The translations under genes and the position numbers were made by a program. 60,274 bases of DNA from a virus (lineage: Duplodnaviria; Caudoviricetes). The notes beneath the pieces are model-generated. The model saw only the letters and a list, made by a program, of their open reading frames with translations, made no database searches and was not told where the DNA came from. This document shows, one piece after another, positions 26,651 to 54,990 of the stretch. The stretch's first letter is position 1, and every line of letters starts with the position of its first letter. The stretch is taken from the IMG/VR virus record IMGVR_UViG_3300033412_000014, positions 1 through 60,274 of that record; one strand, given 5' to 3'.

Positions 26651-27319
26651 TTAGTACATCTCGAGAAGGAGTGAGACCTCGTTGTTGGCACTTCCGTTGG
26701 ATGAAACGGCACCGCTGCCACTGGATCTCACCGCGAGTACACCGATCGAGATCTCTCCAGCACCGATCCCTGTGACCGTCTTGACGAGTGTCTCGTTCAT
26801 CGCACGTCCTGCGATGTCGATGTTGACCTGGTGCGAGGAGAACAGTGTTCCCGTGCTGTCGAGGGTGCTGCCACTCATCCAGCGGCACCGTAGCTGGACG
26901 ATGTCGCCTACGATGCCCGACTGCACGTGACCAACCCACGTGAGCTTGTAGCGAGCGTCATCAACCGCGGTGAAGGTGATCTGATCAAGGAGTGTCTCAA
27001 TCGTGGTGAATGTGCCAACCGTTGAGGTGCGAGTGACTTCATCGATAAAACCCGTGTTGACATCGGCGTACGTACCAATGATGTAGTTGCCCTGTGGGGG
27101 AACAACCATCACCATTACACGCTGGTTGATTCGCACGGGACCGATCAAGCTCATCGCTCGCGATACACCTTGGTCATCACCGTCGACGATCAACTGAACG
27201 TTGGCGATCGACGCGGCGTTGACCACAGTGGCGGGTAGCAGCCGCCAGACGAGACCTGCACGTTGTGCGTTCTCGATCACCGCGGAGAGACCTGCTACGT
27301 GTACGTCAACACCGCTCAT
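26651..27319 (-). CDS. Minor tail protein
   Basis: OB-like N-terminus and beta-rich C-terminus; last gene of the tail module. Confidence 0.6.
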   Translation of the reverse strand: MSGVDVHVAGLSAVIENAQRAGLVWRLLPATVVNAASIANVQLIVDGDDQGVSRAMSLIGPVRINQRVMVMVVPPQGNYIIGTYADVNTGFIDEVTRTSTVGTFTTIETLLDQITFTAVDDARYKLTWVGHVQSGIVGDIVQLRCRWMSGSTLDSTGTLFSSHQVNIDIAGRAMNETLVKTVTGIGAGEISIGVLAVRSSGSGAVSSNGSANNEVSLLLEMY

Positions 27320-28419
27320 GAGTAGGCCTTCCGCATCAGATGACCCATCGCAGCACCCTCCTGAAGCGGAAGAGTCCACGTCAGCTCAAGCCACTTCTCA
27401 CCCTGCCACTTAATCACGTCATAGGCGTCATGACGAGGATCCGGCGGAGTCGCCAGCTCCACCCGCTCGAAGATCGTCTGCCGAAGTGCCAGGTTCCGTG
27501 CGATGGATGCGACCTGCTGCTCCGTTCCTACCTGACGCTCACTGACACTCGGGATCACGAACCCACGGTTGACGATCGAGTGCGGTGCCGTCGTGGGCAC
27601 GTCGGCACGACCTACGATGGGAATGGCAGCGCCGTCCGTGGTGGTGCTTCCGTTCGATATGACGATGAACCGGTTCGGCGCGGTCAGCAGGTCATCCGAC
27701 TCGATGATGGAGCTACGAATCACACGGTTGCCCACGTCGAGGTCGAACGTAGGAATCACGGCCGCCGGGTCGAACGTGCGGATGAAGTGCATCTTCGTGT
27801 CGTTACCAAACCACGGTGAGAAGTAGTCGCCGTCCAGTGCGATCTGCTCCACGATCTGCCCGCGCGACGTGCCAGCGGTCCACGACCCGATCGTCGAGAA
27901 CGGTGAGGAAGCTATGTCGATGACGACGGGTAGGTTGCGCAGAAGTACCTCAATGGCATGCGCACACTGCATACCACCGCCACCCGTGTCAGCCAGGTCG
28001 GGATCACCGTGCGGTGAGAATCCCGTCTCGATCTGCTGATCTACGATGAACATCTCATCATAGAGCAGGGCGTTGATGATCTCACCGTTGGTGAACGTGA
28101 AACCCGTCCGATCGGCGAACATGTAACGACCCAACGGGAATGACTGACCACCGATCACCATGTACAGCAGAATCCGTGACTGGACGACGTTGATGAGTGC
28201 ACTTTCGTCAACACCGAATGAAAGACCTTGGATCTGTCGCTTGATCGTCCGTGTCGTGTCGTGTGACAGTGTCGGGATGGGTTCCTTGAGTGGGTGCAAT
28301 TCGATCGGGCGCTGCGCCTTAACGGCGTTGATGAGGATGAACTTGAACGTCGCCGTGCGCTGCCCAACCCAGTTCGGCATATCGAGCTGGGTTAAGATCT
28401 TTGGCGTGAGCAGGCTCAT
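27316..28419 (-). CDS. Minor tail (baseplate hub-like) protein
   Basis: Position after the large tail protein; FPLGRY and PNRFIV patterns seen in actinophage minor tails. Confidence 0.65.
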   Translation of the reverse strand: MSLLTPKILTQLDMPNWVGQRTATFKFILINAVKAQRPIELHPLKEPIPTLSHDTTRTIKRQIQGLSFGVDESALINVVQSRILLYMVIGGQSFPLGRYMFADRTGFTFTNGEIINALLYDEMFIVDQQIETGFSPHGDPDLADTGGGGMQCAHAIEVLLRNLPVVIDIASSPFSTIGSWTAGTSRGQIVEQIALDGDYFSPWFGNDTKMHFIRTFDPAAVIPTFDLDVGNRVIRSSIIESDDLLTAPNRFIVISNGSTTTDGAAIPIVGRADVPTTAPHSIVNRGFVIPSVSERQVGTEQQVASIARNLALRQTIFERVELATPPDPRHDAYDVIKWQGEKWLELTWTLPLQEGAAMGHLMRKAYS

Positions 28420-31400
28420 GACGTCACCGGTGCTGCCTCATCAGCCACCTCGGTCACCCGGATCTGTGCGAGGTAGAGTCGCCGCTTGTTGTTGACCGTC
28501 CCACTCGGGACGAGGACGTTGGCGTACCAGCGGTTGCCGAGCTCATCACGCACACAGACGTATGGTAGGTCGGCCCAAGCAAGATCACGCAAGCTGTGGA
28601 AGTTGGCGAGACTGGGTACGGGGATCGCGGCTGCCTGCACAAGCATGACTCGGTCAAACATCTCACCTCCTCGCTCCAGTGGTCGGAACGCGACCTGGAA
28701 GTCTCGCCCATACATCTTCAGCATGACCTGCGTGTCCGCCTCAGGGAAGGCAAACATTTCAATCGGTTGGCCTTCCCAAACCATTGGGTACACCAGGTTG
28801 CTCCCAGGTGCCTGGTTAGAGGTGAAGATCAGTATGCTTTCACCGGTGTTGCTACCACTACCGGTTACGCCCGGAGACGTCAACGTCGCGGCCCCAGTCA
28901 CCCAGGGACCGGCGAACGCCAGGCTGTCGAGGAATCGAGCACGGTAACGACTCTCCATCCCTACGCGTGCCTCGAAGTCCTTCATTGACGTGAAGCAGTA
29001 GTTCTGCGCCTGCAGGATGGTCTGCCAGTCGTTGCCATCCTCGTCGTCCTGACGCTGGATCTCCAGTGTCGCGTTCGTGTATCGCACATCAGCCGCGTAG
29101 AAGTTGTCCATGTACATCGTCACCGGAAGTGTGTTCGTGTTTCCGGTCTCGAGTCGTCCTTGCATGCCAGCCAGTGTACCCAGTGGAGGCGGACTCGTCG
29201 TGTCCTGGAACACGACCTGCCACGATGACGGTGGTGTGCTGTCGATGTTCCACGCGGCACCATAGACCCACGTACCGACAGCCTGAAGCATCACCGCGAT
29301 CTTCGAGTTGGCACCGTACTGTCCAATGACGTTCGTCACCGTCAAGAGGGTACCTACGCCTGCGACACGCTTACTAACCTGAAGCGTGAAGGTGCCACCG
29401 GTTCCGAGGACCACGGTCGCCGTGTAGTAGTTGGCAGAGTCAGTCACCCGGGCAAGCAGTCGCGCCGTGATCGATGAACCGATAGCGAGTGCATCAACAC
29501 TGAACTCGGCATAGGCACGCTGGTTGGCGTTGCCCACTGCGATCAACGTCGTGTAGAAGTCATTCACCGCGTTGAAGGTGATGACACCCCGTTCACCGTC
29601 GACGTACGCGGTGTTGCTAAGGCCGGTGTCAAGCGACCACGCGTCACCCGAACTGGACGTCCCAAACTCCTCGGCCGTCGTGGTCGTTCGCTCGAACTGA
29701 TCGCACGCGATCGGCATGTCCCAGGTGAGGTTCACATACTTGATGCCAGTGGGAATGCAGTTGGGTGGAAGGCTGCACTCGGTCGCGACACCCGTGACGG
29801 CCTGCGTGGCTACACCCAGCGTGAAGCTGGTTGGCGCGGGTAGACTCTGTGCGAGAACCACGGTCGCGTCGGACAGTGAGTCCACCGTCGAACTCGTCTG
29901 GTTCGGACCCTTCCACGTCAGCTCGGTGGTCGCACCACCCGGTGGATCGTATGACATGACGTTGAGGTTGGGCGTCGTGCTGTACATCTGCGCACCCAGC
30001 ACCTGCCACTGGTTACCCGCGGTTTCACCTACGGCGGACCACACCACCGTTTGAACCGAGTCACCACTGACCGCCACACTGCCGGTGAGGTCCAGCGTGA
30101 CCTCACGCCATCCGTTGATGATCTCATCGAGATCATTGAAGTCATCCACCGTGATCGACGCGGTGGCCGAGCCGATCGTCACCTTAAGCGGCACCGTTGT
30201 GTTCTCGAACCGCCGCGCATAGTAACGCACCTGGGTGTAGAACGCGGTCGTGCTGATCTCTTGACGAACGTGGATGTCCTGCGTGGCGGTGATCGCTCCG
30301 TACACGGGCGCACCGATCTGGTTCGCATACCCATGACAACCGGTGACGGCCGCTACCGCCGTCAGCAGGGTGACGTCGTTGATGACGTCCGTTTCCTCAA
30401 CACTGAAGGAGGTGTCGACGACGATGGTGGGCTTGAACACACGTCCTTCGACCGGCCAGTCTTCATTGAGCTGCTGGATCGCGGCGTATGTAGGCGGTGA
30501 CTTACCCGCGTTGAAGTTGCTCACGGGGCGGTGTGTTGCGGTTACGAGGTACGTGCCAGGTGTTAAGACCTTACCTAGTGCGTATGAGGTGTCACGCAGT
30601 GGTACGCGGTTTTCACCGATCTGCAGCGATGGGTTGGTGGCCAACGCGATCGACATCTCACGGTAGCCGCCGTAGGCGACTCGCGTTTCCTCGCAGTAGA
30701 AGATCTCAAGAGCCATGTACCCGATGTTCATCGTGCCGACTGACACGGTCCCATCGAATAGGTTGGCGGTGAGAACGATCTGCTGTTGGATGTTAATCGC
30801 GGCCGCCGTGTCAAGGTTGGCGAGTTCTTGATAGCGCCACGGGAAGATCGTCCCACCGACGAACGTCGAGACGCCGGGACCCCACACCGGGTTCCAGTCG
30901 CCGAGGTCGATGTAGTTGATCTGGTCGACGAACGCAAGTGACGTGGTCAGTGAACCGTTGCTCGTTCCACCTTCAGCACCTTGCTGCCAGAAGAAGCTCT
31001 CCGAATACGCCGCCTTACGTGCGATGCCGATCTCAAGAGCGTCGAGCGTGTTGAGTGTTTCACCACCCAGTGTGTACGCGAGCCGCATCTTAACGATGCG
31101 CTTACCCGACAGCTCGTTGGCGTACGCGGTTGTGTTGAAGTTCAGGCCAAGCACATCGCTATCGGTGGCACTACTGAGCCACGACACGAACAGGGTGTCG
31201 GAGGGGTTGCTTAAGCACTGCGCGACGGTTCCACCGATCGCCACGATGTTGCTACCGGTGATGCTGCCGGACTGCACCGGAATCGTGACCTTGCGAACCG
31301 GACCCGTGTCGTATGCGGTGATCTCGGGATAGACACTTACGCCTTCCATCGTGTTCGCGATGAGAGGCGCGGGTACGGCGTTGAGGCCGATGCTCCCCGA

Positions 31401-31532
31401 CACGACTGTGGCGGAGTGATCGAGTCGCATGATGTAGCCGTACTCGTCGAAGTTGTCCGGTAGGAAGTCCGCTTGCTTGATCGGCACCCACTCCATGCCG
31501 ATGTTCTGAGGTGACCGCGGGTTGTAGTCCAC
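28416..31532 (-). CDS. Large minor tail protein (distal tail/receptor-binding fusion)
   Basis: 1038 aa, Thr/Ser/Val-rich beta content, directly after the tape measure gene; C-terminal VCVRDELG. Confidence 0.7.
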   Translation of the reverse strand: MDYNPRSPQNIGMEWVPIKQADFLPDNFDEYGYIMRLDHSATVVSGSIGLNAVPAPLIANTMEGVSVYPEITAYDTGPVRKVTIPVQSGSITGSNIVAIGGTVAQCLSNPSDTLFVSWLSSATDSDVLGLNFNTTAYANELSGKRIVKMRLAYTLGGETLNTLDALEIGIARKAAYSESFFWQQGAEGGTSNGSLTTSLAFVDQINYIDLGDWNPVWGPGVSTFVGGTIFPWRYQELANLDTAAAINIQQQIVLTANLFDGTVSVGTMNIGYMALEIFYCEETRVAYGGYREMSIALATNPSLQIGENRVPLRDTSYALGKVLTPGTYLVTATHRPVSNFNAGKSPPTYAAIQQLNEDWPVEGRVFKPTIVVDTSFSVEETDVINDVTLLTAVAAVTGCHGYANQIGAPVYGAITATQDIHVRQEISTTAFYTQVRYYARRFENTTVPLKVTIGSATASITVDDFNDLDEIINGWREVTLDLTGSVAVSGDSVQTVVWSAVGETAGNQWQVLGAQMYSTTPNLNVMSYDPPGGATTELTWKGPNQTSSTVDSLSDATVVLAQSLPAPTSFTLGVATQAVTGVATECSLPPNCIPTGIKYVNLTWDMPIACDQFERTTTTAEEFGTSSSGDAWSLDTGLSNTAYVDGERGVITFNAVNDFYTTLIAVGNANQRAYAEFSVDALAIGSSITARLLARVTDSANYYTATVVLGTGGTFTLQVSKRVAGVGTLLTVTNVIGQYGANSKIAVMLQAVGTWVYGAAWNIDSTPPSSWQVVFQDTTSPPPLGTLAGMQGRLETGNTNTLPVTMYMDNFYAADVRYTNATLEIQRQDDEDGNDWQTILQAQNYCFTSMKDFEARVGMESRYRARFLDSLAFAGPWVTGAATLTSPGVTGSGSNTGESILIFTSNQAPGSNLVYPMVWEGQPIEMFAFPEADTQVMLKMYGRDFQVAFRPLERGGEMFDRVMLVQAAAIPVPSLANFHSLRDLAWADLPYVCVRDELGNRWYANVLVPSGTVNNKRRLYLAQIRVTEVADEAAPVTS

Positions 31533-41503: not shown

Positions 41504-43555
41504 CTACCCGCGACTCGCGAGTCGGGTGTTCGCGATGGCGTTGGATGCCGACGTCTGCGCGATCTCCTCGGCGTTCCCGTCACCGATTCCCGGCACCTGC
41601 TGAACGGGTGGAGTCTGTGCGGATGTCTGCTGTGATTCAGCGCGGCGCTTGGCGCCACAAGGTCCACATGCCACGGTCTTCTTCTCCTTCTTTGTCGGCG
41701 TCATGGTCGCCGCAGATGCGGTAAGACCACCGTTCATTCGCAGTCGAATCGCCTCGAGGTTCTGGCGGTTCCGACGATCTCCTCCAAGCTGCTGACGAAT
41801 GTGAGCCAGTGCGGTACGATTCGCATCGTCGGAAACGACGTCACCTACGTACGCGTGCTCACTGATGTGGATCGGCACCGAGCTGGCGACCACGACCGCG
41901 TTGTCATCTACGCGTACGGCCGCGACGTCGGTCGATCGCGCGAAGCCCGGAACGGGAACCGCGAGAGAGGCGACGAATTCCTTCCAGCCGCGACGATCAC
42001 GATGAGGCGCCCAATCACCCGACAGCTGACACGCCTGGAACCGCTGGAAGTCCGCGGCGGACATCGGCATGATCGTACCCGAGACCCACGGCGCCTTGTG
42101 CGTCCTCGACTCACCGACACGAACGACGGCCGCGATGGAGCACGAGTTGTCGTAGTGGCTCATACGCGCTTCGGGGTCGGTCGACGCGTATGGGTTGAGG
42201 TGACCACAGTTCATCGTGATCACGCCCGTGCGAATCTTCAGCACCTCACCGTCCGGACCCTCGACGAGCGTCGGCCGGTTCATCCAGGCGGTGTAGTCGA
42301 CGTTACCCATCGGAATCGTCACCCGCTTGTTCTGGAACGCACGGTGTGCCACGTTCGACGGACCGACGAGACCCCAGATGTGCCCGTTCGGTTCGATCCA
42401 GACGGCACCGATCGGCGGCAGGTCCTTGGGCTCCTGGAAGTACTCCAGTGGAGGTAGCTCCGGGATCTCGATCGTGAACCCACGACGCTTCGTCGTTGCC
42501 GCCGCGGTGATCACGTGCGTGTCAGGCTCGGGTTCCACGTTGATCACAGCACCGGCCGTAACCACCTCATCCAGCGTCGACAGGTCACCGGTGAGGTTCA
42601 GCGACGCCTCCACGAACGCGGGGAGGTTGACCATCGTCGCTCCTCGAACCCGGCCGTTGTGGAAGATGGTCTTGTCCGGCGTGAGCGGCATCATGCTCGG
42701 ATCCGCCTCGGGATCATCACCCTGACTGAAGACCAGTTCGATGTCACCGGCCTTGACCGAGTCGGCGTCGATCGAAACACCTCGCAGGTACTGACCCTTG
42801 ATCTTCCGCGCGGCCTGCATACCGTATGGGTCACCGAGGTCGATCGTGCCCTTGCCCATGATCCGGTTACCGTCACGCCACACGTGCGTGATGTTGCCGA
42901 CGTTCACGGACTTGTCGGTGGTACCACCGTGGCTGGTCTCATACTGGTACATCAGCGGGATCGGCAGCTCAGGCCAGGTGAGTGAGTTCGGCGCGAACTC
43001 ACGTCCGTCGCCCGTCTCCACACCTTCGACCGCGAGAACTCCGTCCCACCCTATCGAACGTGACGATGGTGTCACGTCACCGGCGCCGACACGCCGAACG
43101 GGTGCGTTACCTGTCCTCACCGCAAAGCTCTCCGTTTCACCGCTGTGACCCTTACCGGGCGGGGCTCCGACCGCCTCCGTGTGGTACTCGTTGCAGAGTC
43201 CCTGTGGATCACGAACGTACTTACCCAGGTGACGGACGCAGCGGTTGAAATCACCGTCGGTTCCCCAACGGATCTTCGCAGCTCCCTCACCATGGGTCCA
43301 GTACTCCCGCAGACCACGATCACTTCCGTACGCCTCCGCCGAGATCTTGATTACTCCTGGATCATCGTACAACGTCTCGGTGGTGTTGTCGGTGATCGCA
43401 CTGGCCGTCAGCACCGACCCAGGCGTGTTAAGTATGACGTTGAGTTCGTCGTCGGTGAACCCGTCCGTGTCGGTCGATTCATCGTCATCGACGACGTGGA
43501 ACTGTGGGTCGTTGGCCGGGTCGGTCAACGGCGTAAGTTCGGTCTTGTCAGCCAT
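41504..43555 (-). CDS. Capsid maturation protease with extra N-terminal domain
   Basis: GVLAVEG..TGDGR, H...VG.I, GVSID.D and GATMV..PAF.EA; N-terminal YWTHGEGAAKIRW..GDF.RC module. Confidence 0.8.
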   Translation of the reverse strand: MADKTELTPLTDPANDPQFHVVDDDESTDTDGFTDDELNVILNTPGSVLTASAITDNTTETLYDDPGVIKISAEAYGSDRGLREYWTHGEGAAKIRWGTDGDFNRCVRHLGKYVRDPQGLCNEYHTEAVGAPPGKGHSGETESFAVRTGNAPVRRVGAGDVTPSSRSIGWDGVLAVEGVETGDGREFAPNSLTWPELPIPLMYQYETSHGGTTDKSVNVGNITHVWRDGNRIMGKGTIDLGDPYGMQAARKIKGQYLRGVSIDADSVKAGDIELVFSQGDDPEADPSMMPLTPDKTIFHNGRVRGATMVNLPAFVEASLNLTGDLSTLDEVVTAGAVINVEPEPDTHVITAAATTKRRGFTIEIPELPPLEYFQEPKDLPPIGAVWIEPNGHIWGLVGPSNVAHRAFQNKRVTIPMGNVDYTAWMNRPTLVEGPDGEVLKIRTGVITMNCGHLNPYASTDPEARMSHYDNSCSIAAVVRVGESRTHKAPWVSGTIMPMSAADFQRFQACQLSGDWAPHRDRRGWKEFVASLAVPVPGFARSTDVAAVRVDDNAVVVASSVPIHISEHAYVGDVVSDDANRTALAHIRQQLGGDRRNRQNLEAIRLRMNGGLTASAATMTPTKKEKKTVACGPCGAKRRAESQQTSAQTPPVQQVPGIGDGNAEEIAQTSASNAIANTRLASRG

Positions 43556-46500
43556 TAGCCGACCACCTCCAGGTGAACTTCTGTCGAGTAACTGCTCGGC
43601 ACTACCTTCTTGATCCGATACTTAAGCCCGGGTGCCAGCAGCAGTTCATTCTCCGACTTGTGCAAGCTGATCTCTTTTACCCACGCGGCCGGCGTTCCCA
43701 CAGGGACGTCGATCGTCAGTTTAAGTTCACCACTGAACGCCGCCGTTCCACCCGCTGACGTGCTGAGGAAACCGTCCTCTTGTACGGTCTTTCCCTCTAG
43801 GTCCTGAAGCAGCTTGATCCGCTCAGATGTGGACAGCTTCTCAGCACCCAATCCAAACGCCGACCAGCCAGAGCCACGGTGCACCCGAACCGCCTTGGTG
43901 ATCGGTCGCATACCGTCGATCGCGTTCTGGTTGGTCTTCTTTATGGACTCCGTGCACGTAGACGGCTTCCGAAGACATCCGTTCATACTGGAGTACGTAC
44001 CACCGGTGTACGTCCGCAACGCCGACGACTGCGAAGCCGTCCACGCGCCGTGCTGCGCGTGCATCTCCTCCTGGATCTTCTTCATCGTCAACGGCGTACG
44101 AATGGGGAAGTCCGTCGACGGCTCGATGTTGACGACCGGAAGCGTCGGTGTACCGGGTGAGTACTTCACACCAGCCTTGGTGAGCGGCTGCAGTGTCGGG
44201 CCGATGCTAAGCGTGTACGACAGCTTAGACTTACCCGCCAGTGTCTTGCCGTACTTCTGCAGCTTGTCGGTGAAGGGTGTCTTCGACGTCTTGGTGCTCG
44301 TCGTTTCATCCATCGCCGCAAGGATCTGAAGAGGCGTGAACTCTGGATGAGCCTTGATCGCCTTTGCGAGTGCGTCCACCATGTCCGACGCGTTGGTGTG
44401 CCACTTCACACCGTCGTCGCTGAAGATCTTCTTGATCGCGGCGGCCTTTGCCGGTGTCATCACCGCGGCGGGCTTAGGCGTGAATCCTGCCTTGATGCCA
44501 CCCGACGGTTCGTCTACCTTGGACCATATGCCAGATCCGGCGGCCATGGCGGCGATGACGTGGTTCTCGTCATCATACGTCTTTGCATGTTGCCACGTAC
44601 CCGTGGAGGTCTTCGTCTGCTTGACGAACTTTCCGTTGTTAAAGATGATACGTGTTAGTGGCGTGCCAGCGATCGACTTGTTGTACATCGCGACGACGTC
44701 GTCGTCCTTGTACACACCCTGCTTGATCGTCTCTTCCAGGGAGAGTCCCGAGGTCGGGTTGGCGGCCTTCGTCGTCAGCAGATCCACGGCGCTGAGCGTG
44801 GGTGCCGGCATCGCGGACGGAGTCGCGGACGGCACATCAACACCGAACTTCGGTTCGTCGCCCTTAACCCACTTCGACGTCTTAGCGGCCGTTAACGAGT
44901 CGACGACCTTCTGTGGATCACTGGTCGTCACCTTAACCTGCCAGACACCGCCGGTGAGTCCCGACTTAGTCCGCTTCACGTACTTCTTGTTCATGTCGTC
45001 CCAGATCCACTGGGACTCACCCGCGGAGTTCTTGAAGCGAGCGATCACCTGGCCGTCGGCGTACTTACCGTGCAAGATCGTCGTGGGGAGATCCAGCGGG
45101 GCGGCCGGTGGCGTAGCACTCGTCGTCGACGGAACGTCAACACCAAGTGACGGTTCCTCACCCTTGTACCACCCACCCGCGTTGAAGACCGGCGCGGTGA
45201 TGTTCGACGCGACGGTCTCAGCACTAGGTGAGGAGTTCTTCGTCTCCCAGACACCGGTCTTCTTAGACTTGACCTGCGAGAGGTACATCTTGCTGTTGGC
45301 GTCCCAAACCCAACGTGCCTCGATGTCATTGTGCTTGTAAAACGCGATGACCTGACCGTCCGCGTACTTACCGTGTATGACGGTGTTGGCGTAGTCGTTG
45401 TCCATCGGTACAAGCTCGGTCATCGTCTTAACGACGATCGGCGCACTCGTCGGTGGTGCCGCCGGAGTCAGTTCACCGAGGTACCAGCCGGAACCCGCGT
45501 CGATACCTTGGAGCTTCTTGTACGCCTCAGCCTTGCCGTACGGTGCACCACTCCATGTGCCGTCGTCCTTCTTAAATTCGATGTGAATCTTGTTGTTCTT
45601 GTAGATGGCTCGCCACTCATCGTTACCTGACGTCGCGATGACCTCGCCGTCCTGGTACTTCCCGTAGATGATCGCGTTGGTGAGCTTCGGCACCTTCTTC
45701 GGTAGCGGCTTCGCAACCGCGGACGGTGTCGTAACGGACTTGATTGGCCCAGGTGGCGTCATCGGCTTGCCGACACCCATCCAGCTGTAGTCCGCCTGCT
45801 GGAACTCATCGAGGCTGGTGTACTTATCTACGGTGAAGAACTTACCGTCCGCACCTTCGACCTGATCGTGAAGAACCCATTCACCGTCCGCGTTCAGCTT
45901 GCCAACGAGACGATGATAGTCACCGGTTACCGGATCCTCGCCACCTGCAATGCCTTCACCTATAGCGAAGATGCCCTTTGACATCTGATCCCACAGCTTG
46001 CTGTGAGGAGCGCCGGTGTCGGAGAACTTATCCGGGTGAACCGGGTCCATCGCCGTCATCGTGGGCGCCTTGGGCGTGGGAACAGCGGACTTCTTGTTGA
46101 CGTCGTACTCTTCCAGGTACGCCGCGTCGAACTCGTCCTTGCTTTCCCACGTCCGATCGAGGTGCCAGTCACCGTCCTCGAACTGGTACTCTGCGAGCTG
46201 CTGACCCGTGTCGTAGTCCTGAACGATGATCTTAAGTGGCATCTCTTTTCCATCGAGTGACGTGCCCTTAAGGATCACATCACCGTCATTGAACATCTTA
46301 CTCGTAACGACAAGGTCCCAGATGTTCTCTTGCAACTCAGCGGCGTAGTCATACTCCTCACCGCTGAAGATGGATCCTTGATCGATTGCGGTCGGAGCGT
46401 TCTTCTTGTCCGCCATGTGCTTCTTGAACGCGTCGGTCGGTGAAAGTGACTCATCGATCGATGGTTCGTCGCCGAACATTGCCTTGTTGTGAAGCGCGGT

Positions 46501-48123
46501 TGCCTCGGCCTCAGACAGCTCACCGTCATCATCGAGGTCGCCTGGTAGGTGTGCGTCGATCGGGTGGAAGCCGATGTCACTGGGCAGGTCGGGCGAAACA
46601 CCTTCCTGCTGGGCGAGCTTGAGAAGGCTCTCACGCCGAGCGACCAGCTTATCGGCGAGCTTCTTGTCCTTGATGATCTCACGGATCTTCTCAGGCGTGA
46701 GATCCTCTACACGCTTGACCGACTCCTTGAGCTCATCGGTCGTCATTCCCTTGAAGATCTTCGCGGCGAAGGGATTCTGTGTCGTGCTGCGCAGACTCGA
46801 CCACTCGCCGACATCGGTGCCGAACGCACCACCCTTCGCTGTACCCTGTGCGCGGTACGCCAGCGCACCACCGACGTCGATCCGATGTGGCTTACCCTGC
46901 GCGTCAAAGACGATGTTGTCGAACCCGGTACCCGCGACGTCCCAGTTGGCGAGAAGTGCGTCGACCGCGAAGCCCTCACGAATCGCGTGAATCTTCGCTG
47001 TGTCATTGCCGTTAACGGCCGACGACAGCGTCGTTTCACCCACGTCGACGAGCCGTGTCGCGGTATGCGTTCCCGAGCTGAGACCCGGCGCACCCTCGCC
47101 GATGATGACCTCAGGTACGTCGATACCAGCGGCACGGTAGAGCAGTGACGCATCGCGCTCGTTCTGCGCGTGCTTCGCGGTCTTCTGCTTCTTCACATAC
47201 CAGCGTGATCCGTCTGGCGCCTCGTAGAACCCGCCCTCATTGGAGCCGGCCTTGCCACCGACCTTCTTCAGCCCAGAGAAGTCACCCGACTGGATCTTCT
47301 TGATGACATCCGATTCGACCGGCCCGGCGGAACCCGGTGACAGGTCGATCTCAGGCGGGTTCGACGGGCCAAGGTCATCGAACGGCAACACGTCGGTGTC
47401 ACCCTTGAGGAAGTCAACGATTCCCTTGGTACCCGGAACCTTGGCGAACTTTCCGTCGGCATCTCGCGGGTGTTCGGACGGCTTGAACTGCTTCTTACCG
47501 GCGGCGACGACCGGATCGTCAGCATCCTGCGCGCCGAGAGGGAAGTCGGTGATCTCACCGGCGAACACGACACGGATCCGGTCGAATGTCACGGGTCCGA
47601 GCTTCTTCATCGCCTGCTTGACGACGCTCATCTCGTCGGAGTACGCGAGCGTGATGTGCGGAACCCAGGGGGTGTGCTGCTCAGGAACCTCGTCATCGAA
47701 GACGTCGACGACGTTGCCGGTGATCGCCTTGTGCAGGGCAACCAGCAGGTCGGAGCCGCGAACACCCAACACCACCGCGGTGTCGAAGTCGTCACTGGAT
47801 GGGTTGAAGATGTTCACCGAGAACGTCTCGGTCGTGATCGCAACATATCGCTCGACGATCTCTTCGACGACGCGTCGCAGTAGGTCACGCCCCTCCTCAC
47901 CCCACAGGTTCGCGTCACCGAGGAACAGAAGTGTGGTGTGCAGCTCAGACGCGGGTTCGGCACCGTCGACGTCCAGCGCGAGGGCGTTCGCGTCCTCAGC
48001 CGTCGGCATCAGTGCGATCATGCCGCCGAGGTTAACCTCACCGGCAGCCGTGAGGGACTCTTCGATGATGTCGACGAAGCCGTCATCGAAGAGTCGTGTG
48101 ACATCCATCTCGTCGGTCTTCAT
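43555..48123 (-). CDS. Polyvalent head-module protein: 2H phosphoesterase + HipA/PI3K-like kinase + repeats + ADP-ribosyltransferase
   Basis: HTTL/HITL 2H motifs; GSNEGG..WYVK, DALLANWD and RIDVGG kinase motifs; YT...Y..MN..LR, HRG, FLSTS and ENELLL ART motifs. Confidence 0.85.
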   Translation of the reverse strand: MKTDEMDVTRLFDDGFVDIIEESLTAAGEVNLGGMIALMPTAEDANALALDVDGAEPASELHTTLLFLGDANLWGEEGRDLLRRVVEEIVERYVAITTETFSVNIFNPSSDDFDTAVVLGVRGSDLLVALHKAITGNVVDVFDDEVPEQHTPWVPHITLAYSDEMSVVKQAMKKLGPVTFDRIRVVFAGEITDFPLGAQDADDPVVAAGKKQFKPSEHPRDADGKFAKVPGTKGIVDFLKGDTDVLPFDDLGPSNPPEIDLSPGSAGPVESDVIKKIQSGDFSGLKKVGGKAGSNEGGFYEAPDGSRWYVKKQKTAKHAQNERDASLLYRAAGIDVPEVIIGEGAPGLSSGTHTATRLVDVGETTLSSAVNGNDTAKIHAIREGFAVDALLANWDVAGTGFDNIVFDAQGKPHRIDVGGALAYRAQGTAKGGAFGTDVGEWSSLRSTTQNPFAAKIFKGMTTDELKESVKRVEDLTPEKIREIIKDKKLADKLVARRESLLKLAQQEGVSPDLPSDIGFHPIDAHLPGDLDDDGELSEAEATALHNKAMFGDEPSIDESLSPTDAFKKHMADKKNAPTAIDQGSIFSGEEYDYAAELQENIWDLVVTSKMFNDGDVILKGTSLDGKEMPLKIIVQDYDTGQQLAEYQFEDGDWHLDRTWESKDEFDAAYLEEYDVNKKSAVPTPKAPTMTAMDPVHPDKFSDTGAPHSKLWDQMSKGIFAIGEGIAGGEDPVTGDYHRLVGKLNADGEWVLHDQVEGADGKFFTVDKYTSLDEFQQADYSWMGVGKPMTPPGPIKSVTTPSAVAKPLPKKVPKLTNAIIYGKYQDGEVIATSGNDEWRAIYKNNKIHIEFKKDDGTWSGAPYGKAEAYKKLQGIDAGSGWYLGELTPAAPPTSAPIVVKTMTELVPMDNDYANTVIHGKYADGQVIAFYKHNDIEARWVWDANSKMYLSQVKSKKTGVWETKNSSPSAETVASNITAPVFNAGGWYKGEEPSLGVDVPSTTSATPPAAPLDLPTTILHGKYADGQVIARFKNSAGESQWIWDDMNKKYVKRTKSGLTGGVWQVKVTTSDPQKVVDSLTAAKTSKWVKGDEPKFGVDVPSATPSAMPAPTLSAVDLLTTKAANPTSGLSLEETIKQGVYKDDDVVAMYNKSIAGTPLTRIIFNNGKFVKQTKTSTGTWQHAKTYDDENHVIAAMAAGSGIWSKVDEPSGGIKAGFTPKPAAVMTPAKAAAIKKIFSDDGVKWHTNASDMVDALAKAIKAHPEFTPLQILAAMDETTSTKTSKTPFTDKLQKYGKTLAGKSKLSYTLSIGPTLQPLTKAGVKYSPGTPTLPVVNIEPSTDFPIRTPLTMKKIQEEMHAQHGAWTASQSSALRTYTGGTYSSMNGCLRKPSTCTESIKKTNQNAIDGMRPITKAVRVHRGSGWSAFGLGAEKLSTSERIKLLQDLEGKTVQEDGFLSTSAGGTAAFSGELKLTIDVPVGTPAAWVKEISLHKSENELLLAPGLKYRIKKVVPSSYSTEVHLEVVG

Positions 48124-49598
48124 CGAACCACCCTCACGTCAAGCTGACGCACGCCGTGTTCATCAACTCCGTGGTCAGCGACGATCTGATAGCGAAGACC
48201 ACGATCGAGTGTTACCTCGTAGATACGCTCCAGTGGCGCCATCGCAGGCGTGCCCCGTGGTGTAAGAATGCGCATCTTGGCCGGCTGCGCCCACGAACCG
48301 ACACCACCGTTCTGGAACTCGGTGGCCAGCCGTTCAACACGTCCCGGCTCGGCGGTCGTGGAGACGAAGCCGTGGTCAACGTACTCGACGCCCGTCATGT
48401 CACCGTTGGCAACATCACCAAACATCGCACCGAGGTCACCAATGCCGCGCTCTGTTATGATGTCATCCTCCACATGTGAAGATGCCATGATCTCATCCAG
48501 TGTCGCGATCGTGGCCCGGGTCTCTGGATCAGCGATCTTGCTGGGATCACCGTCACTCGCACGGAGGCCGTCATTGATCTGCTTCGCGTTGGCGACACGG
48601 ATCCACGCCTGCGCGGCATCGATGTACTTCTGACGCGACTTGTCGTAGTCACGCTGGTTGCGCGCCGCGTACTCGCGACCGGTGCTGAACGGCACCTTGG
48701 CGAACGCACCCTTGCCACTAATGGCGTTCTTGAAGTCGTCGCCTGCCGTCTCGGCGAACCGACCGTGCGTGTCACGGACGTATTCACGGTCGGCTGCGAC
48801 GAGAGGTTCATCGGGCATCTCCAGGTCGAACGCGACGGAGCAGCGACACTGAATGATCTCACCCGGTGGTGCCGTCGGGTCACCCGGTACGAGCAGGTAC
48901 GAGACACCGGTGCCACACTCGGGGCCACCCAGCGTGAACCACTCACGCAGGTCGACGGTCTGACCACCGGCCATCTTGTGTGTGCAGCGGGTTCGCTCGT
49001 CGTTGGTGTCGAGCCACTCCTTGGTGCCGATGAGACCTGAGACGAGGACCTGCTGGAACGACCCGGCGTTGGCCGCCATGTTCGCCTCGGTGCGAGCGAT
49101 CACGTTGGCACGCGGCATACCCGTCTTTCCCGCGGTGTCGATCCGTGTTGCGAGCTGCTGGGTGGTCTCACCCAGCGAGAACCCGACGAGCAGTTCCTCA
49201 CGGATCTTCATCCACACGTGGTCACCGATGCCGACCAGCCGGTTCGTCGCCTTGGCGAGGTACTCGACGGCGAAGTCATCCGAGACCGGGTCCGATGTCA
49301 ACTCATCGAAGGCATCGTCGATACCCTGCCAGATGACGCCCGCGGACTCGAGGTAGATGTCACTTAGCGCGGGGAGCAGCTCGGCCTGAACGTGCCCCTT
49401 CCACATGGATGTGATCACCCCGAGGTCACCGATGTCGACCGGTGCCGCAGGTACGCCCGCCGCGGTGATGACCTTGTTCTGCTTGAACACGGTGATCGCG
49501 TTCTTCGTAAGGAGCGCCACCTTGCGGTCGATGAGGTCCGCGAACGCGTCCTCGCGCTCACGCATCGTGGTCGGGTCCCACCCGAAGATCTTCGTCAC
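48120..49598 (-). CDS. MuF minor head protein fused to a C-terminal ADP-ribosyltransferase-like domain
   Basis: RA.VIARTE, KEW....D.RTR.TH and PGDP....E.IQCRC MuF motifs; IN..LR, ERG, GFVSTT and YEV ART-like motifs. Confidence 0.85.
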   Translation of the reverse strand: MTKIFGWDPTTMREREDAFADLIDRKVALLTKNAITVFKQNKVITAAGVPAAPVDIGDLGVITSMWKGHVQAELLPALSDIYLESAGVIWQGIDDAFDELTSDPVSDDFAVEYLAKATNRLVGIGDHVWMKIREELLVGFSLGETTQQLATRIDTAGKTGMPRANVIARTEANMAANAGSFQQVLVSGLIGTKEWLDTNDERTRCTHKMAGGQTVDLREWFTLGGPECGTGVSYLLVPGDPTAPPGEIIQCRCSVAFDLEMPDEPLVAADREYVRDTHGRFAETAGDDFKNAISGKGAFAKVPFSTGREYAARNQRDYDKSRQKYIDAAQAWIRVANAKQINDGLRASDGDPSKIADPETRATIATLDEIMASSHVEDDIITERGIGDLGAMFGDVANGDMTGVEYVDHGFVSTTAEPGRVERLATEFQNGGVGSWAQPAKMRILTPRGTPAMAPLERIYEVTLDRGLRYQIVADHGVDEHGVRQLDVRVVR

Positions 49599-49601
49599 CG
49601 A

Positions 49602-51161
49602 TCAGTCCCGTCCGGAGTCGTTGGACGACGTCCCGCCACGATCAGGTGGTTCCTCGTCGGTAGCCGACTCAGAACCTCCCTCGATCGCTTGGGACCCTGA
49701 GTCCTCCCCTGGCATGACCTGATCCTGCCCCTGGTTGGACAGCTCGATTGCCTTTCCGGTGAGCTCCTCGAGGTATACAGGATCCGCTCCGGGGGACAGC
49801 GCCTGCCGCAGGAGGATCATCTCGATCCGTTCCCGCGTGGTCGGTGCGTCGGAGTCCTCAAAGCCGAGGTAGCGCAGGTACGCCAGTGGTCCGAGCTCAC
49901 CGTTGAGGTACGCCTTCTCGGCGTTCTCACTGAGGTCCGGCTTCTGTGTCAGTTCACCCGCGTCGTACCACGCGATGATCTCGTCCCCACCGGAATCGTT
50001 CAGGTCCTCGCCTGCGGCGGCCAGCATGGGTCGCAGGTACGTCTTCGTCAGTGCCTGGCAGACGAGCTCGACCGGCGGCACGACGTGTTGCGAGACCTCA
50101 TCGTCCTTGATCTCCCAGGCACCCCAGTGGTTCACCTCGCCAAGACCAGTGATGCGTTCCTTCGAGATGTTCATCGTCGTGGCGAGCCGTTCGATCGCCT
50201 GTCGCCGGTTCTCGATGATGTACTGGTCCATCGGCGTGAAGAACGTCAGGTGCTTGATCTTGTCGAGGAAGGCGCCGTTCACCCGCATGGGATACGGCAT
50301 CGCCGCACCCGCGGTGCCGGGGTTCTTGATGTTCCGCGACATGATCTCGACGAGTTCGGCGATCCACGGGTCGGCCGCGTCCTTGAAGTCCGGGTTCACG
50401 GGGAAGGTGAGCTCGTCCGGAAGTAGCAGGATGCCGTTCATCGCGATGCGAGACACCAGCGTCGCGATGATGTGCTTATCGTAGAGCGTGATCTCACGCA
50501 GGATCGGAATCGCCGACTTGGACTGCGAAACGGACAGCCAACCGAAGCGCGGGTGTGGGTGACGAATCTCTGCGACGAACCCGTCCACGGTTTCCCACTG
50601 GCCAGGCATCAGCTGGATCTCCCAGCGACCGACCTGCGGAGGTCGTACCATGCCGGTGCCGATGCCGAACAGCTGGGTGATTCGTCCTCGCTTGGAGCTG
50701 GACAGCGACGGCCGGATCTCGTCACCCGACTTAACCGACCACGACACGCCACCGAAGTCACGGACACCGACGAGGTAACACTTGCCAACCAGCGGGATGT
50801 GCAGCCCAAAGGCACCGTTGTTCTCCGGGTTCGAGATCTCGGCCATGAGGTCTGCCGCGGGACCGTCCTGCAAGATCTTCGGTTCGGCCTCGCCTCGCAC
50901 CCGCACGGCCGCGACGAGTCGCACGCGAGAGATCGTCTGTGAGAGCCACCAGTGGCCGTAGCCGAACTCACCGACGGTGTCGAGGTAGTCCCAGACCTCG
51001 TCTTGCCACCGTTCATACCGGAATAGGATGTTCGCACGTGGATCGTCGGGCATCATCCGGCCGGCCGCCGTCAGTGCCGCACTGTCGTCGTAGACGTTCG
51101 CGCGAACCGGGTACGGTGCGACCGACGTATCCGTAAGTGTGGTGCGTCGGCGGTCTGCCAC
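49602..51161 (-). CDS. Portal protein
   Basis: WQDEVW...D.VGE, SRVRL, SRI..NGIL..P.E and G.GEVNHW.AW; GTG start after GGAGG. Confidence 0.85.
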   Translation of the reverse strand: MADRRRTTLTDTSVAPYPVRANVYDDSAALTAAGRMMPDDPRANILFRYERWQDEVWDYLDTVGEFGYGHWWLSQTISRVRLVAAVRVRGEAEPKILQDGPAADLMAEISNPENNGAFGLHIPLVGKCYLVGVRDFGGVSWSVKSGDEIRPSLSSSKRGRITQLFGIGTGMVRPPQVGRWEIQLMPGQWETVDGFVAEIRHPHPRFGWLSVSQSKSAIPILREITLYDKHIIATLVSRIAMNGILLLPDELTFPVNPDFKDAADPWIAELVEIMSRNIKNPGTAGAAMPYPMRVNGAFLDKIKHLTFFTPMDQYIIENRRQAIERLATTMNISKERITGLGEVNHWGAWEIKDDEVSQHVVPPVELVCQALTKTYLRPMLAAAGEDLNDSGGDEIIAWYDAGELTQKPDLSENAEKAYLNGELGPLAYLRYLGFEDSDAPTTRERIEMILLRQALSPGADPVYLEELTGKAIELSNQGQDQVMPGEDSGSQAIEGGSESATDEEPPDRGGTSSNDSGRD

Positions 51162-51171
51162 CGGCTGCCTC

Positions 51172-51552
51172 CTACTCGGGCTCGTGTGTTGCGATGAGAC
51201 CGGTGACCGTGGAGGCGGCCAGCCAGATGAGGAACGGCATGGGAACACTGACGAAGTGTGTCAGGGCCGTGACCAGTCCACCGGAGACCCAGACTGAGAC
51301 GCACCAGTCGCACTCCCACAGGTACGCCAGGCTCTGCCCGACGATTCCCCAGTGAGGCTTGGGTGGGTGCTGCTCGATCGGTCGTCCCGCGTGCTTCGCG
51401 CGCCACTGAACGATGTACTCGTCGGAGGGGTCGAGCCAGTTCGTCACGTGATAGCGCGGAATCGCGATGAGGGGGAACTTGTCACGCGTGATGAGACGCG
51501 TCAGGCGGTGAACCGCGAGCGCTATGAGAAGGTAGAGCAACCACGTCGGCAT
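51172..51552 (-). CDS. DUF1360-like membrane protein
   Basis: RLTRLIT.D and C.WC.SVW; TM helices. Confidence 0.75.
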   Translation of the reverse strand: MPTWLLYLLIALAVHRLTRLITRDKFPLIAIPRYHVTNWLDPSDEYIVQWRAKHAGRPIEQHPPKPHWGIVGQSLAYLWECDWCVSVWVSGGLVTALTHFVSVPMPFLIWLAASTVTGLIATHEPE

Positions 51553-53415: not shown

Positions 53416-54990
53416 TTAGAACGGACCGGACCGCGATCCCGCGAAGATGTCGTCGGCGCCACCGGCGTAGGGCTGCCACACATCGGTGGGGCTAGTGCCC
53501 GCGAGCAGGTCGGTGGTCATGAGGTCCAGCGGAGGTAGGATCGCCTCGTGGTTCATCTCGGTGAAGGCGAGTAGGAGTGCGTCGGACTTGTCGGGCGACA
53601 TGCCGGTGCGCTTGATGATCTCGTCCTTACGCTCGATCTTTACCTTACCCGCGGAGTCCATGATCTCATAGTGTGACGCGGTGAGCTCGGCGATCGTGTC
53701 GTCGTCCACGCGTGTTAGGTCCCAGCTGCGCAGCCGACACGCCTCACGCCCGATGATCCAGTGCATGTAGGCGCGCATGTTGAGGACCTTCGCCTCGAAC
53801 CCAGGCGGTGGAGACTGCGCGAAGTTGATCGCGGTGACCTCGGCGTCGTGCTGCCAGTCCTTGTCCGATCCAGCGGGATTCGACCGGCTGCTGAGCTCCT
53901 TCAGTCGTCCGCAGATGCCCCAACCGATTCCGGTCGAGTCGACCTTAACGCGGCGGATCCCCTCCTCCCGGAGGATGTTTGCGAGCTTTCCGACCGTTCG
54001 CATCGGGTCACTGTCGATGAACACGTACTCGTCCAGTGCGACACGTCCCTGCCGAACCCGCAGGATCGTACGGTCACCGCCGCCACCGACGTCGATGCCC
54101 GCCTCCTTGTCGAGAGCCGTGTTGAGCGGCAGTTCGTTGGACTTGCAGGCGATCGCCCACGCGTACGGGATCGTCGAGTACGGGTCACCGACGGTCGGGA
54201 ACTCTCCGTCACACTTGGACTGAAAGATCGCGGACTCCGGGCCCCAGTGCTTCTTCCGGTCCTCGTACCACACCTCGTGGATGAGGACGTCGCGGACGTG
54301 CTGTGGAACCTCCTCGCCCGTGTAGTTGGGTGTATCCTTGAACCCGATCTTAATGACGTTCCAGTCACTGGTCGGCTTACACACCGTTCCGAACTCGGTG
54401 AGGACGTCGTCGGGGTTGCCGATCGCGAGGATGCGCGAGTGTTCGTTGGCGGCCAGCGTCGACGCGGCGTCCCACATCGTCCGGACGACACCGCAGGCCT
54501 CGTCGAGTACGACGAGCAGCTTACGTGCGTGAAGGCCCTGGAACGCGTGGGTGTTGTAGTCGCTGGGCTTACGCCCGAACGCGACGAGCTCACGGCCGAT
54601 GTACCACTCCGTCAGGTTCGTTCGTCCTGGGAGTCCCGCGGACGTGTGGAGTCGGTTGATCTCGCGCCAGAGAATCGCCTCGACCTGCGGTGCCGTAGGC
54701 GCCGTCGTTACGACGAAGGCCTCACCCGGGAGATGGCAGTCCAGCCACCAGCAGACGGTCGTTGCGGCGACGAAGGACTTACCCGTCTCGTGACAGCTGT
54801 GGACGGCGGTCTTACGGTGGTCCCGCACCGATCGGATGATCTCCTGCTGCTTGGACCAGAGGTCAAGATGCGCCCGCTCCCTCGTCCACAGCACCGGATC
54901 ACGCTGGTAGCGACGCCCAGGCGGGTCCGCTCGCTGGAGCATCGCCTGCCCGGGCGTTCCGATCGTGGGTACCGTTGCGAGCTTAGCCAC
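53416..54990 (-). CDS. Terminase large subunit
   Basis: WSKQ, SCHETGKS, TAPT..QV, VLDEA, IGNP, GIDVG.GGD and SPDKSDA. Confidence 0.93.
   Translation of the reverse strand: MAKLATVPTIGTPGQAMLQRADPPGRRYQRDPVLWTRERAHLDLWSKQQEIIRSVRDHRKTAVHSCHETGKSFVAATTVCWWLDCHLPGEAFVVTTAPTAPQVEAILWREINRLHTSAGLPGRTNLTEWYIGRELVAFGRKPSDYNTHAFQGLHARKLLVVLDEACGVVRTMWDAASTLAANEHSRILAIGNPDDVLTEFGTVCKPTSDWNVIKIGFKDTPNYTGEEVPQHVRDVLIHEVWYEDRKKHWGPESAIFQSKCDGEFPTVGDPYSTIPYAWAIACKSNELPLNTALDKEAGIDVGGGGDRTILRVRQGRVALDEYVFIDSDPMRTVGKLANILREEGIRRVKVDSTGIGWGICGRLKELSSRSNPAGSDKDWQHDAEVTAINFAQSPPPGFEAKVLNMRAYMHWIIGREACRLRSWDLTRVDDDTIAELTASHYEIMDSAGKVKIERKDEIIKRTGMSPDKSDALLLAFTEMNHEAILPPLDLMTTDLLAGTSPTDVWQPYAGGADDIFAGSRSGPF

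Follow-up and report, generated by a model that had tools for sequence, protein, structure and literature searches.

The window analysed here is a virus record of 60,274 bp from IMG/VR, IMGVR_UViG_3300033412_000014, taken at its full length, and our subject is a single gene in its head-gene block. This gene, P0001, lies on the minus strand and starts with an ATG codon; its product of 1522 residues is a polyvalent protein that holds a 2H phosphoesterase domain, a kinase-like domain, six repeat domains, a helical domain and an ADP-ribosyltransferase (ART) domain in one chain (Table 1). A first-pass annotation of the window had placed an open reading frame (ORF) of this size at 43555..48123, and we found its coordinates, strand and start codon to be correct. 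Along the frame, G+C content at third codon positions (GC3) is 0.70-0.79 and that at second positions (GC2) is the lowest in all six segments; the two long plus-strand ORFs have the composition of antisense shadows. With this coding pattern and strong Pfam expectation (E) values, a chance finding can be dismissed. We conclude that P0001 is well supported as a real multi-enzyme protein of the head operon.

The block runs in the order terminase, portal, MuF-ART (P0003), P0001, protease (P0002) and major head protein. The stop codon of P0003 overlaps the start codon of P0001 (ATGA), and the stop codon of P0001 overlaps the ATG of P0002 by one base (TAATG). No slippery heptamer was seen upstream of the ATGA overlap; a programmed frameshift joining P0003 to P0001 was therefore rejected, and the junction is read as translational coupling. 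On both of its sides the P0001 gene is translationally coupled, to the MuF-ART gene upstream and to the prohead protease gene downstream. This is where the first-pass annotation had put it, as one ORF between MuF and protease genes: the upstream product matches PF04233, and relatives of the downstream product are annotated as capsid maturation proteases. The Pfam scan gave no match for P0002 itself. For P0001, the scan lists four families at E<=1, and no MuF, portal or protease/peptidase domain is among them.

Megablast of the P0001 ORF against 50,697 phage records gave no match, and tblastn with the protein matched 438 records, none of them spanning 80% of it. A related-locus search with the whole protein found one identical fragment only, an IMG/VR contig of 7,075 bp (L007) that carries a copy of residues 472-1522 at 100% identity; the same phage has therefore been assembled at least twice.

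The amino-terminal domain is a 2H phosphoesterase

Residues 52-178 of P0001 match PF13563 (2_5_RNA_ligase2) with an E value of 4.2e-09 and 37.1 bits, against a gathering cutoff of 27, and the best PHROGs for the domain are phrog_2659 and phrog_18402 (E about 1e-28). Both HxT motifs of the 2H superfamily, the mark of an internal duplication, are present, HTTL from H62 (codon 47940-47938) and HITL from H156 (codon 47658-47656), exactly where the first-pass annotation had seen them, and both are invariant in our 2H alignment (A2). Across the best 80 of 220 related viral loci, the set to which all 2H locus counts below refer, H62, T64 and H156 are kept in 80/80; the T158 position is T in 63 and C in 17. 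Judged by these motif residues, the domain is predicted to be catalytically intact.

The first-pass annotation had further called this domain Acb1-like, after the T4 enzyme. Membership of the 2H superfamily holds, on PF13563 and the two HxT motifs, and a match to the Acb1 family model was not obtained. The Acb1 Pfam model PF23474, against which T4 57B (Acb1) scores 202.7 bits, is not among the P0001 matches at E<=1, a search in which HMMER filters drop most matches above E about 0.1. In hhalign, the 2H alignment paired with T4 Acb1 at 39% probability over 39 columns that include the second HxT motif only, and phrog_755, the Acb1 PHROG, is matched weakly (E 9.1e-4, profile positions 30-143 of 156). 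A PDB search by profile matched archaeal proteins of the 2'-5' ligase type (1vdx, 4.9e-4; 2fyh, 9.3e-4), coronavirus ns2a (E 3.8e-3), which we take to be a 2'-5' oligoadenylate phosphodiesterase, and E. coli ThpR (E 0.022); it gave no chain named Acb1 at E<=10. A single-sequence search of the PDB with the domain gave no match. By its sequence, the domain is thus Acb1-like at the level of the superfamily only and lies nearer to LigT/ThpR; the domain anatomy that had been proposed for P0001 is correct, and the 'Acb1-like' label is too specific. Candidate substrates would include cyclic oligonucleotides, 2'-5' links, 2',3'-cyclic RNA ends and ADP-ribose cyclic phosphate.

Head modules of this kind regularly include the 2H domain. 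It lies visibly between portal/MuF and protease/capsid genes in 56/80 loci; fusion of its ORF to the prohead protease occurs in 47/80 and to MuF in 26/80, and in 10/80 the ORF carries kinase or ART modules. A 2H phosphoesterase is a near-constant component of the portal-MuF-protease-capsid block in this actinophage-like group.

Many of the related loci (L014, L030, L045 and others), and P0159, have 2H-protease or MuF-2H-protease fusions. GenBank actinophage records annotate the 2H-protease region as 'RNA ligase' or 'head maturation protease', and the 2H domain often goes unseen where a gene bears no label but 'capsid maturation protease and MuF-like fusion protein', as in Streptomyces phages.

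A predicted CtkA-like kinase domain follows the 2H domain

The first-pass annotation had also proposed a kinase at 47280-46610 (residues 282-505). This region has no Pfam match of its own, and its AlphaFold model, built from a 17-sequence alignment, resembles kinases. The model is confident (predicted local distance difference test, pLDDT, 90.3; predicted template modelling score, pTM, 0.85) and displays a two-lobed kinase fold. Foldseek ranked H. pylori CtkA and actin-fragmin kinase highest for this model, ahead of a long series of other kinases. The family residues comprise a Gly loop (G293/G298), a strand lysine (K311), a helix glutamate (E322), N393-W-D395, N403 and D416-x-G-G; their roles were assigned by their place in the secondary structure of the model, without residue-level superposition. 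Family hidden Markov models (HMMs) were home-made and some ORFs are cut by contig ends, and the counts given here for relatives are approximate. K311, E322, D395, N403 and D416 are invariant or almost invariant in the kinase alignment (A1). Among 179 kinase domains, K311 is kept in 169, E322 in 168, D395 in 168, N403 in 174, D416 in 164 and G298 in 147.

At the level of sequence, residues 260-530 were without a match in Pfam, NCBIfam and PHROGs and without a relevant one among PDB sequences, and the curated kinase models HipA_C, HipA_2, PI3_PI4_kinase and APH matched neither P0001 nor P0005. Searching the PDB with the kinase profile (A1) gave ART matches only. A match to uS15, obtained in a PDB sequence search with the kinase region alone, was to the C-terminal helices and was dismissed as spurious. 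Weak Pfam matches to HipA_C, HipA_2 or APH occur in the kinase domain of 4/20 relatives, and in P0007 the HipA_C match reaches 1.7e-18 summed over five kinase copies. We accept the domain as a kinase, most like CtkA, because of the confident model, the kinase matches in Foldseek, the conserved residue set and the weak HipA/APH matches. On the model, it is a CtkA/PI4K/HipA-like kinase with a complete set of ATP-binding and phosphotransfer residues and with predicted activity.

Neither Pfam nor PHROGs has a model of the kinase domain, which is abundant: 4,672 representative clusters came up in an exhaustive HMMER search at E<=0.001, and 625 at E<=1e-30. The best 150 relatives are mostly longer than 1,000 residues, the longest reaching about 7,000. 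Because cultured Gordonia, Pseudomonas, Yersinia and Escherichia phages carry the kinase-like domain, the Gordonia phages Sixama, GodonK and Phendrix among them, it is directly testable.

P0001 ends in a conserved ART domain and P0003 in a divergent one

The carboxy-terminal domain of P0001 matches PF03496 (ADPrib_exo_Tox) at E 2e-22 (79.9 bits; cutoff 23.4). Its triad is R1416, S1454-T-S1456 and E1491-N-E1493, which aligns with the motifs of VIP2 and Lmo0066; these two are also its sequence matches in the PDB (Lmo0066, 1e-07; VIP2, 4.2e-07). The VIP2-type R-S-E ART that had been proposed for 44070-43555 (residues 1352-1522) is thus borne out. The triad is highly conserved: among 139 family ARTs, the R is kept in 133, the S in 134 and the two Glu residues of ExE in 134 and 138.

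P0003 carries a second ART behind its MuF domain, with R384, S413-T-T415 and I459-Y-E461. The first Glu of ExE is here replaced by Ile, with the Arg, the Ser motif and the catalytic Glu retained; the first Glu is absent from only 5/139 family ARTs. The P0003 domain may, on its residues, act on a different target residue or as an NADase. The two ARTs share 28% identity over 78 residues (E 0.005), and so low a similarity led us to reject a recent duplication as their origin.

A chain of repeats separates the kinase from the ART

About 840 of the 1522 residues lie between kinase and ART, and the repeats push this pair apart. The six units span residues 600-678, 707-775, 812-886, 909-992, 1010-1092 and 1127-1207. 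Each consists of a helix, four strands and a helix, and disordered linkers rich in Pro, Ala and Thr run between them. In the AlphaFold model of this region the units have a pLDDT of 70-85 and the linkers one below 50, giving the appearance of beads on a string. Our repeat HMM finds 5/6 of the P0001 units and detects the repeat in 35/149 relatives, in which the copy number varies from 2 to 12. Foldseek gave no clear fold match for the repeat domains, and an ESM Atlas search with the repeat region gave none that was usable. Beta-propeller and similar entries returned by Foldseek for a 770-residue model of the middle of the protein had template modelling (TM) scores of about 0.05 and were judged meaningless.

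A conserved helical domain precedes the ART (Table 1). Between the 2H and kinase domains lies a short motif, [HK]xR[DGN]xxG[KRQ][FW], which as a regular expression matches 34/149 relatives, including P0014 and P0017. Going by its sequence and position, it could serve as linker, targeting signal or cleavage site. In short homologues, strings of a similar type stand ahead of the kinase.

P0001 corresponds to the effector part of a MuF-headed protein

Relatives of P0001 join what is split in the window. In locus L008, a single ORF of 1767 residues consists of P0003 residues 1-294 (65% identity) followed by P0001 residues 21-1521, the latter in three blocks at 81%, 50% and 44% identity. MuF and the P0001-type protein are fused in L009 as they are in L008, and in L010 and L011 they are split, as here, into a MuF gene and a 2H-kinase-repeat-ART gene. 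Three further proteins (P0009, P0017 and P0012) join MuF straight to 2H at a conserved junction. P0003 departs from this junction, continues through the second, divergent ART and then stops. Single chains of the form MuF-ART-...-kinase-ART occur as well (P0071, P0074, P0124 and P0129). Because L008 and L009 are single chains, we read P0001 as the product of a gene fission that parted the effectors of a polyvalent protein from its MuF head. By sequence comparison, P0001 is the split-off, effector-bearing part of a MuF-family polyvalent protein and is encoded apart from the MuF module.

We surveyed the wider family in the 149 top representatives of the kinase relatives, and scanned 56 kinase-domain relatives with Pfam (E cutoffs 1e-4 and 1e-5). 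Of these 56, 51 contain an ART, 16 MuF, 5 Phage_min_cap2, 2 Phage_portal, 15 NUDIX and 7 2H; MuF, Phage_min_cap2 or Phage_portal is present in 23/56. In the close relatives P0008, P0009, P0014 and P0017, the NUDIX domain lies between 2H and kinase. With the home-made HMMs, an ART is present in 112/149, and in 108 of the 112 the last ART comes after the kinase. The two domains are often close neighbours: for 66 of the 128 kinase copies with a downstream ART, the gap is below 150 residues, and P0007 (3416 residues) is made up of five tandem kinase-ART pairs. A protein of 3130 residues (P0058) is unusual: it lacks an ART, and its three kinase-like domains are joined by NUDIX, SH2 and a tyrosine-phosphatase domain.

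Genome context

The record is complete or nearly so (CheckV completeness 97%) and has a G+C content of about 61%. Its capsid, protease and effector proteins have only distant nearest relatives (<= about 35% identity), almost all of them in actinobacterial phages, with hosts in genera such as Mycobacterium, Gordonia, Microbacterium, Arthrobacter and Streptomyces. In its own genome the phage encodes a DNA polymerase, a primase, a helicase, an exonuclease, a thymidylate synthase and methyltransferases. Scanning of 42 larger ORFs turned up neither an integrase nor a repressor PHROG.

Alignment with capsid proteins of other phages is confined to residues from about 163 to 572 of the major head protein; the ~160 residues ahead of this part may form a scaffold-like (delta) domain. 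Two large ORFs, of 1038 and 367 residues, lie downstream of the tape measure gene at 27316-31532 on the minus strand. Neither matched a PHROG at E<=1e-5, and both probably encode tail or host-recognition proteins.

Table 1. Genes of the head block and domains of P0001, with window positions and basis of assignment (aa, amino acids)
Feature	Position	Strand	Basis
Terminase large subunit	53416..54990	-	phrog_2, E 1.1e-26
Portal protein	49602..51248	-	phrog_776, E 3.3e-91
P0003, MuF (PF04233) aa 131-255 and second, divergent ART aa 337-473	48120..49598	-	Pfam
P0001, polyvalent protein, 1522 aa	43555..48123	-	ORF; coding-type GC3 throughout
P0001, 2H phosphoesterase domain, aa 31-199	47527..48033	-	Pfam PF13563; HxT motifs H62-T-T64 and H156-I-T158
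P0001, short inter-domain motif, aa 218-226	47446..47472	-	Regular expression
P0001, protein-kinase-like domain, CtkA-like, aa 281-505	46609..47283	-	Predicted fold and motifs
P0001, six ~80-aa repeat domains	44503..46326	-	Self-BLAST; AF2 model
P0001, conserved helical domain ahead of ART, aa 1224-1300	44224..44454	-	
P0001, R-S-ExE ADP-ribosyltransferase, aa 1353-1511	43591..44067	-	Pfam PF03496
P0002, probable capsid maturation protease, 683 aa	41504..43555	-	Homologues so annotated in actinophage records
Major head protein, 576 aa	39668..41398	-	phrog_777, E 1.9e-112

Proposed role and alternatives

We propose that P0001 would be made late alongside the head proteins, taken into the procapsid and ejected with the DNA into the next host. 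There, by analogy with T4 Alt and the T7 kinase, the ART would ADP-ribosylate and the kinase would phosphorylate host proteins, in the service of takeover or counter-defence. The 2H domain would hydrolyse a 2',3'-cyclic, 2'-5' or cyclic-oligonucleotide phosphodiester; candidates for its substrate are an immune second messenger, an RNA end and an ADP-ribose cyclic phosphate. More tentatively, a 2H enzyme placed in the head module would fit a phosphodiesterase that is delivered at injection and pre-empts nucleotide-based immune signalling. The repeats could act as spacers or docking modules.

Packaging and injection are, in our estimate, the probable fate of P0001, given the fusions and the gene context: relatives of the protein are fused to MuF, minor capsid protein 2, portal and protease, and its gene is tightly coupled to head genes. 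Further support comes from gp129 of Yersinia phage fHe-Yen8-01, a distant homologue whose kinase domain is 34% identical (E 3e-30) and which ends in an ART, for which the GenBank note reads 'phage particle associated protein'. Several points weigh against this proposal. The note on gp129 is a record annotation only, and a literature search on fHe-Yen8-01 found no paper. P0001 itself is without a MuF, portal or protease domain, so that packaging of the split form is an extrapolation from its joined relatives. The kinase assignment draws on a predicted fold and motifs, and P0001 matched no sequence-level kinase model. Pairwise BLAST of the P0001 ART against T4 Alt gave a best E of 0.25, hence no similarity, although both match PF03496. 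The phage is an uncultured IMG/VR record in which P0001 is known from sequence alone, and the activities and substrates of all three enzyme domains are predictions.

P0001 might instead belong to a late cytoplasmic enzyme set that is not packaged and acts in the producing cell during assembly, for example by restraining late-acting defences or by modifying phage or host proteins, without ever entering a new host. The absence of MuF, portal and protease domains from P0001 would suit such a role, as would the position of T4 Acb1, the known anti-CBASS (cyclic oligonucleotide-based antiphage signalling system) 2H enzyme, outside the T4 head-gene block; T4 Acb1 acts from inside the infected cell. 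However, the nearest relatives covalently join the same protein to MuF, most related loci fuse the 2H domain to the procapsid protease or to MuF, and the P0001 gene overlaps both flanking head genes, and we regard a purely cytoplasmic set as improbable. A mainly structural internal head or ejection protein with vestigial enzymes would make the repeat region a ruler or tether inside the capsid. It would account for the long stretch between kinase and ART, the variable repeat number and the beads-on-string model; yet relatives keep the catalytic residues of the three enzymes at about 92-100%, a point in favour of active enzymes, and we regard this explanation as very unlikely.

The activities themselves can be read differently. 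Instead of destroying an immune signal, P0001 could serve as an NAD+ (nicotinamide adenine dinucleotide)/ADP-ribose and RNA-end toolkit. It would use the 2H domain on 2',3'-cyclic phosphate RNA ends or on ADP-ribose 1'',2''-cyclic phosphate, the NUDIX domain of relatives for cleaving ADP-ribose or NAD caps, and the kinase-like domain for phosphorylation of a small molecule or nucleotide. Consistent with this, the 2H domain is nearest to LigT/ThpR-type enzymes (1vdx, ThpR) and TIGR02258, NUDIX recurs in relatives and lies between 2H and kinase in close ones, and the kinase copies of one relative match Pfam APH, a family of small-molecule kinases. Iyer 2022, which like the other papers discussed below is cited from part of its text, counts 2H enzymes among the processors of ADP-ribose cyclic phosphates. 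On the other side, Pfam finds no RNA ligase or Tpt1/KptA partner in the P0001 ORF, in structure the kinase domain comes closest to a protein kinase (CtkA), and the PDB profile search with the 2H domain also reached coronavirus ns2a, and we give such a toolkit the same low standing as the unpackaged set. A MuF-type polymorphic toxin of a temperate phage, used in interbacterial competition and paired with an immunity protein, is the least credible of the explanations considered. ART is frequent as a MuF-toxin domain (Jamet 2017, PMC5576092) and a MuF gene lies directly upstream of P0001; but the MuF domain is outside the P0001 polypeptide, the next gene is the 683-residue protease with its one-base overlap in place of a small downstream ORF, no integrase or repressor appeared among the ORFs scanned in a phage that has its own polymerase, primase and helicase, and kinases go unmentioned in the portion of Jamet 2017 (PMC5576092) on which we draw.

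Within the packaged and injected protein that we favour, the kinase and ART could form one conserved, head-borne two-enzyme unit acting on a common host target. The unit may take the form of phosphorylation-dependent ADP-ribosylation, of the reverse order, or of phosphorylation of the ADP-ribose adduct. We offer this only tentatively, as a possibility that we rate as rather doubtful. If P0001 is packaged and active, three host-modifying activities (phosphodiester hydrolysis, phosphorylation and ADP-ribosylation) would enter the cell before any phage gene is expressed, the stage that sets off nucleotide-signalling defences.

Comparison with known systems

The idea of an injected toolkit is plausible and, as a class, already published. 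Polyvalent proteins of phages and conjugative elements were defined in Iyer 2017 (PMC5512222), which lists ART, 2H and a kinase family among their domains, describes MuF and portal fusions, predicts packaging and injection, and already proposes that 2H domains degrade nucleotide signals. P0001 resembles these proteins in that its gene sits among virion genes and several effector domains share one long chain. It differs in being split from MuF, which in its case resides in the overlapping upstream gene, unlike the MuF-fused polyvalent proteins. The sections of Iyer 2017 (PMC5512222) used here describe a polyvalent kinase without the entire C-terminal subdomain, found mainly in elements of Verrucomicrobia-Chlamydia and Bacteroidetes; the P0001 kinase, CtkA-like with an N-W-D catalytic loop and present in actinophage-like and gammaproteobacterial phages, differs from it in these stated features and hosts, and the two may nevertheless be one family. 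They also ascribe processing to a metallopeptidase domain, whereas P0001 has no Pfam peptidase domain.

Among head-borne ARTs, T4 Alt matches PF03496 as P0001 does (124.1 and 79.9 bits), and its RefSeq note states that it is in the capsid and enters with the DNA. Unlike P0001, T4 Alt has a single enzyme domain and does not adjoin MuF. Alt/VIP2 ARTs are often MuF-fused and packaged (Iyer 2022), and MuF-VIP2 fusions, predicted to be virion-borne, are described for Microbacterium phages of clusters EH and EJ (Jacobs-Sera 2020, PMC7302621). These fusions match the upstream protein P0003, which likewise bears a VIP2-type ART on a minor capsid protein resembling MuF; the ADP-ribosyltransferase and MuF passages of that paper (PMC7302621) make no mention of 2H, kinase or a repeat module. 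The MuF toxins of Jamet 2017 (PMC5576092) share with P0001 a MuF-linked C-terminal toxin, ART included, and hypothesised delivery with the DNA. They belong to temperate phages and have a small downstream immunity ORF in 89% of cases, according to the part of the paper (PMC5576092) used here; in the window, no such ORF follows P0001, and no integrase or repressor was seen among the 42 ORFs scanned.

T4 Acb1, the product of gene 57B, shares the 2H superfamily and the two HxT motifs with P0001; unlike the P0001 domain, it is a free protein of 152 residues encoded outside the T4 head-gene block. CtkA is located on an H. pylori conjugative element. As known from PDB entries 3akj, 3akk and 3akl, it is a stand-alone bacterial protein kinase, with no match to P0001 at the sequence level. 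Among titles and the opening parts of abstracts, none pointed to a phage head protein that pairs a CtkA-like kinase with an ART. Against this background the added value of our analysis is modest: to the published class of injected polyvalent proteins it adds an abundant CtkA-like kinase that usually travels with an ART, and a 2H enzyme of the head module.

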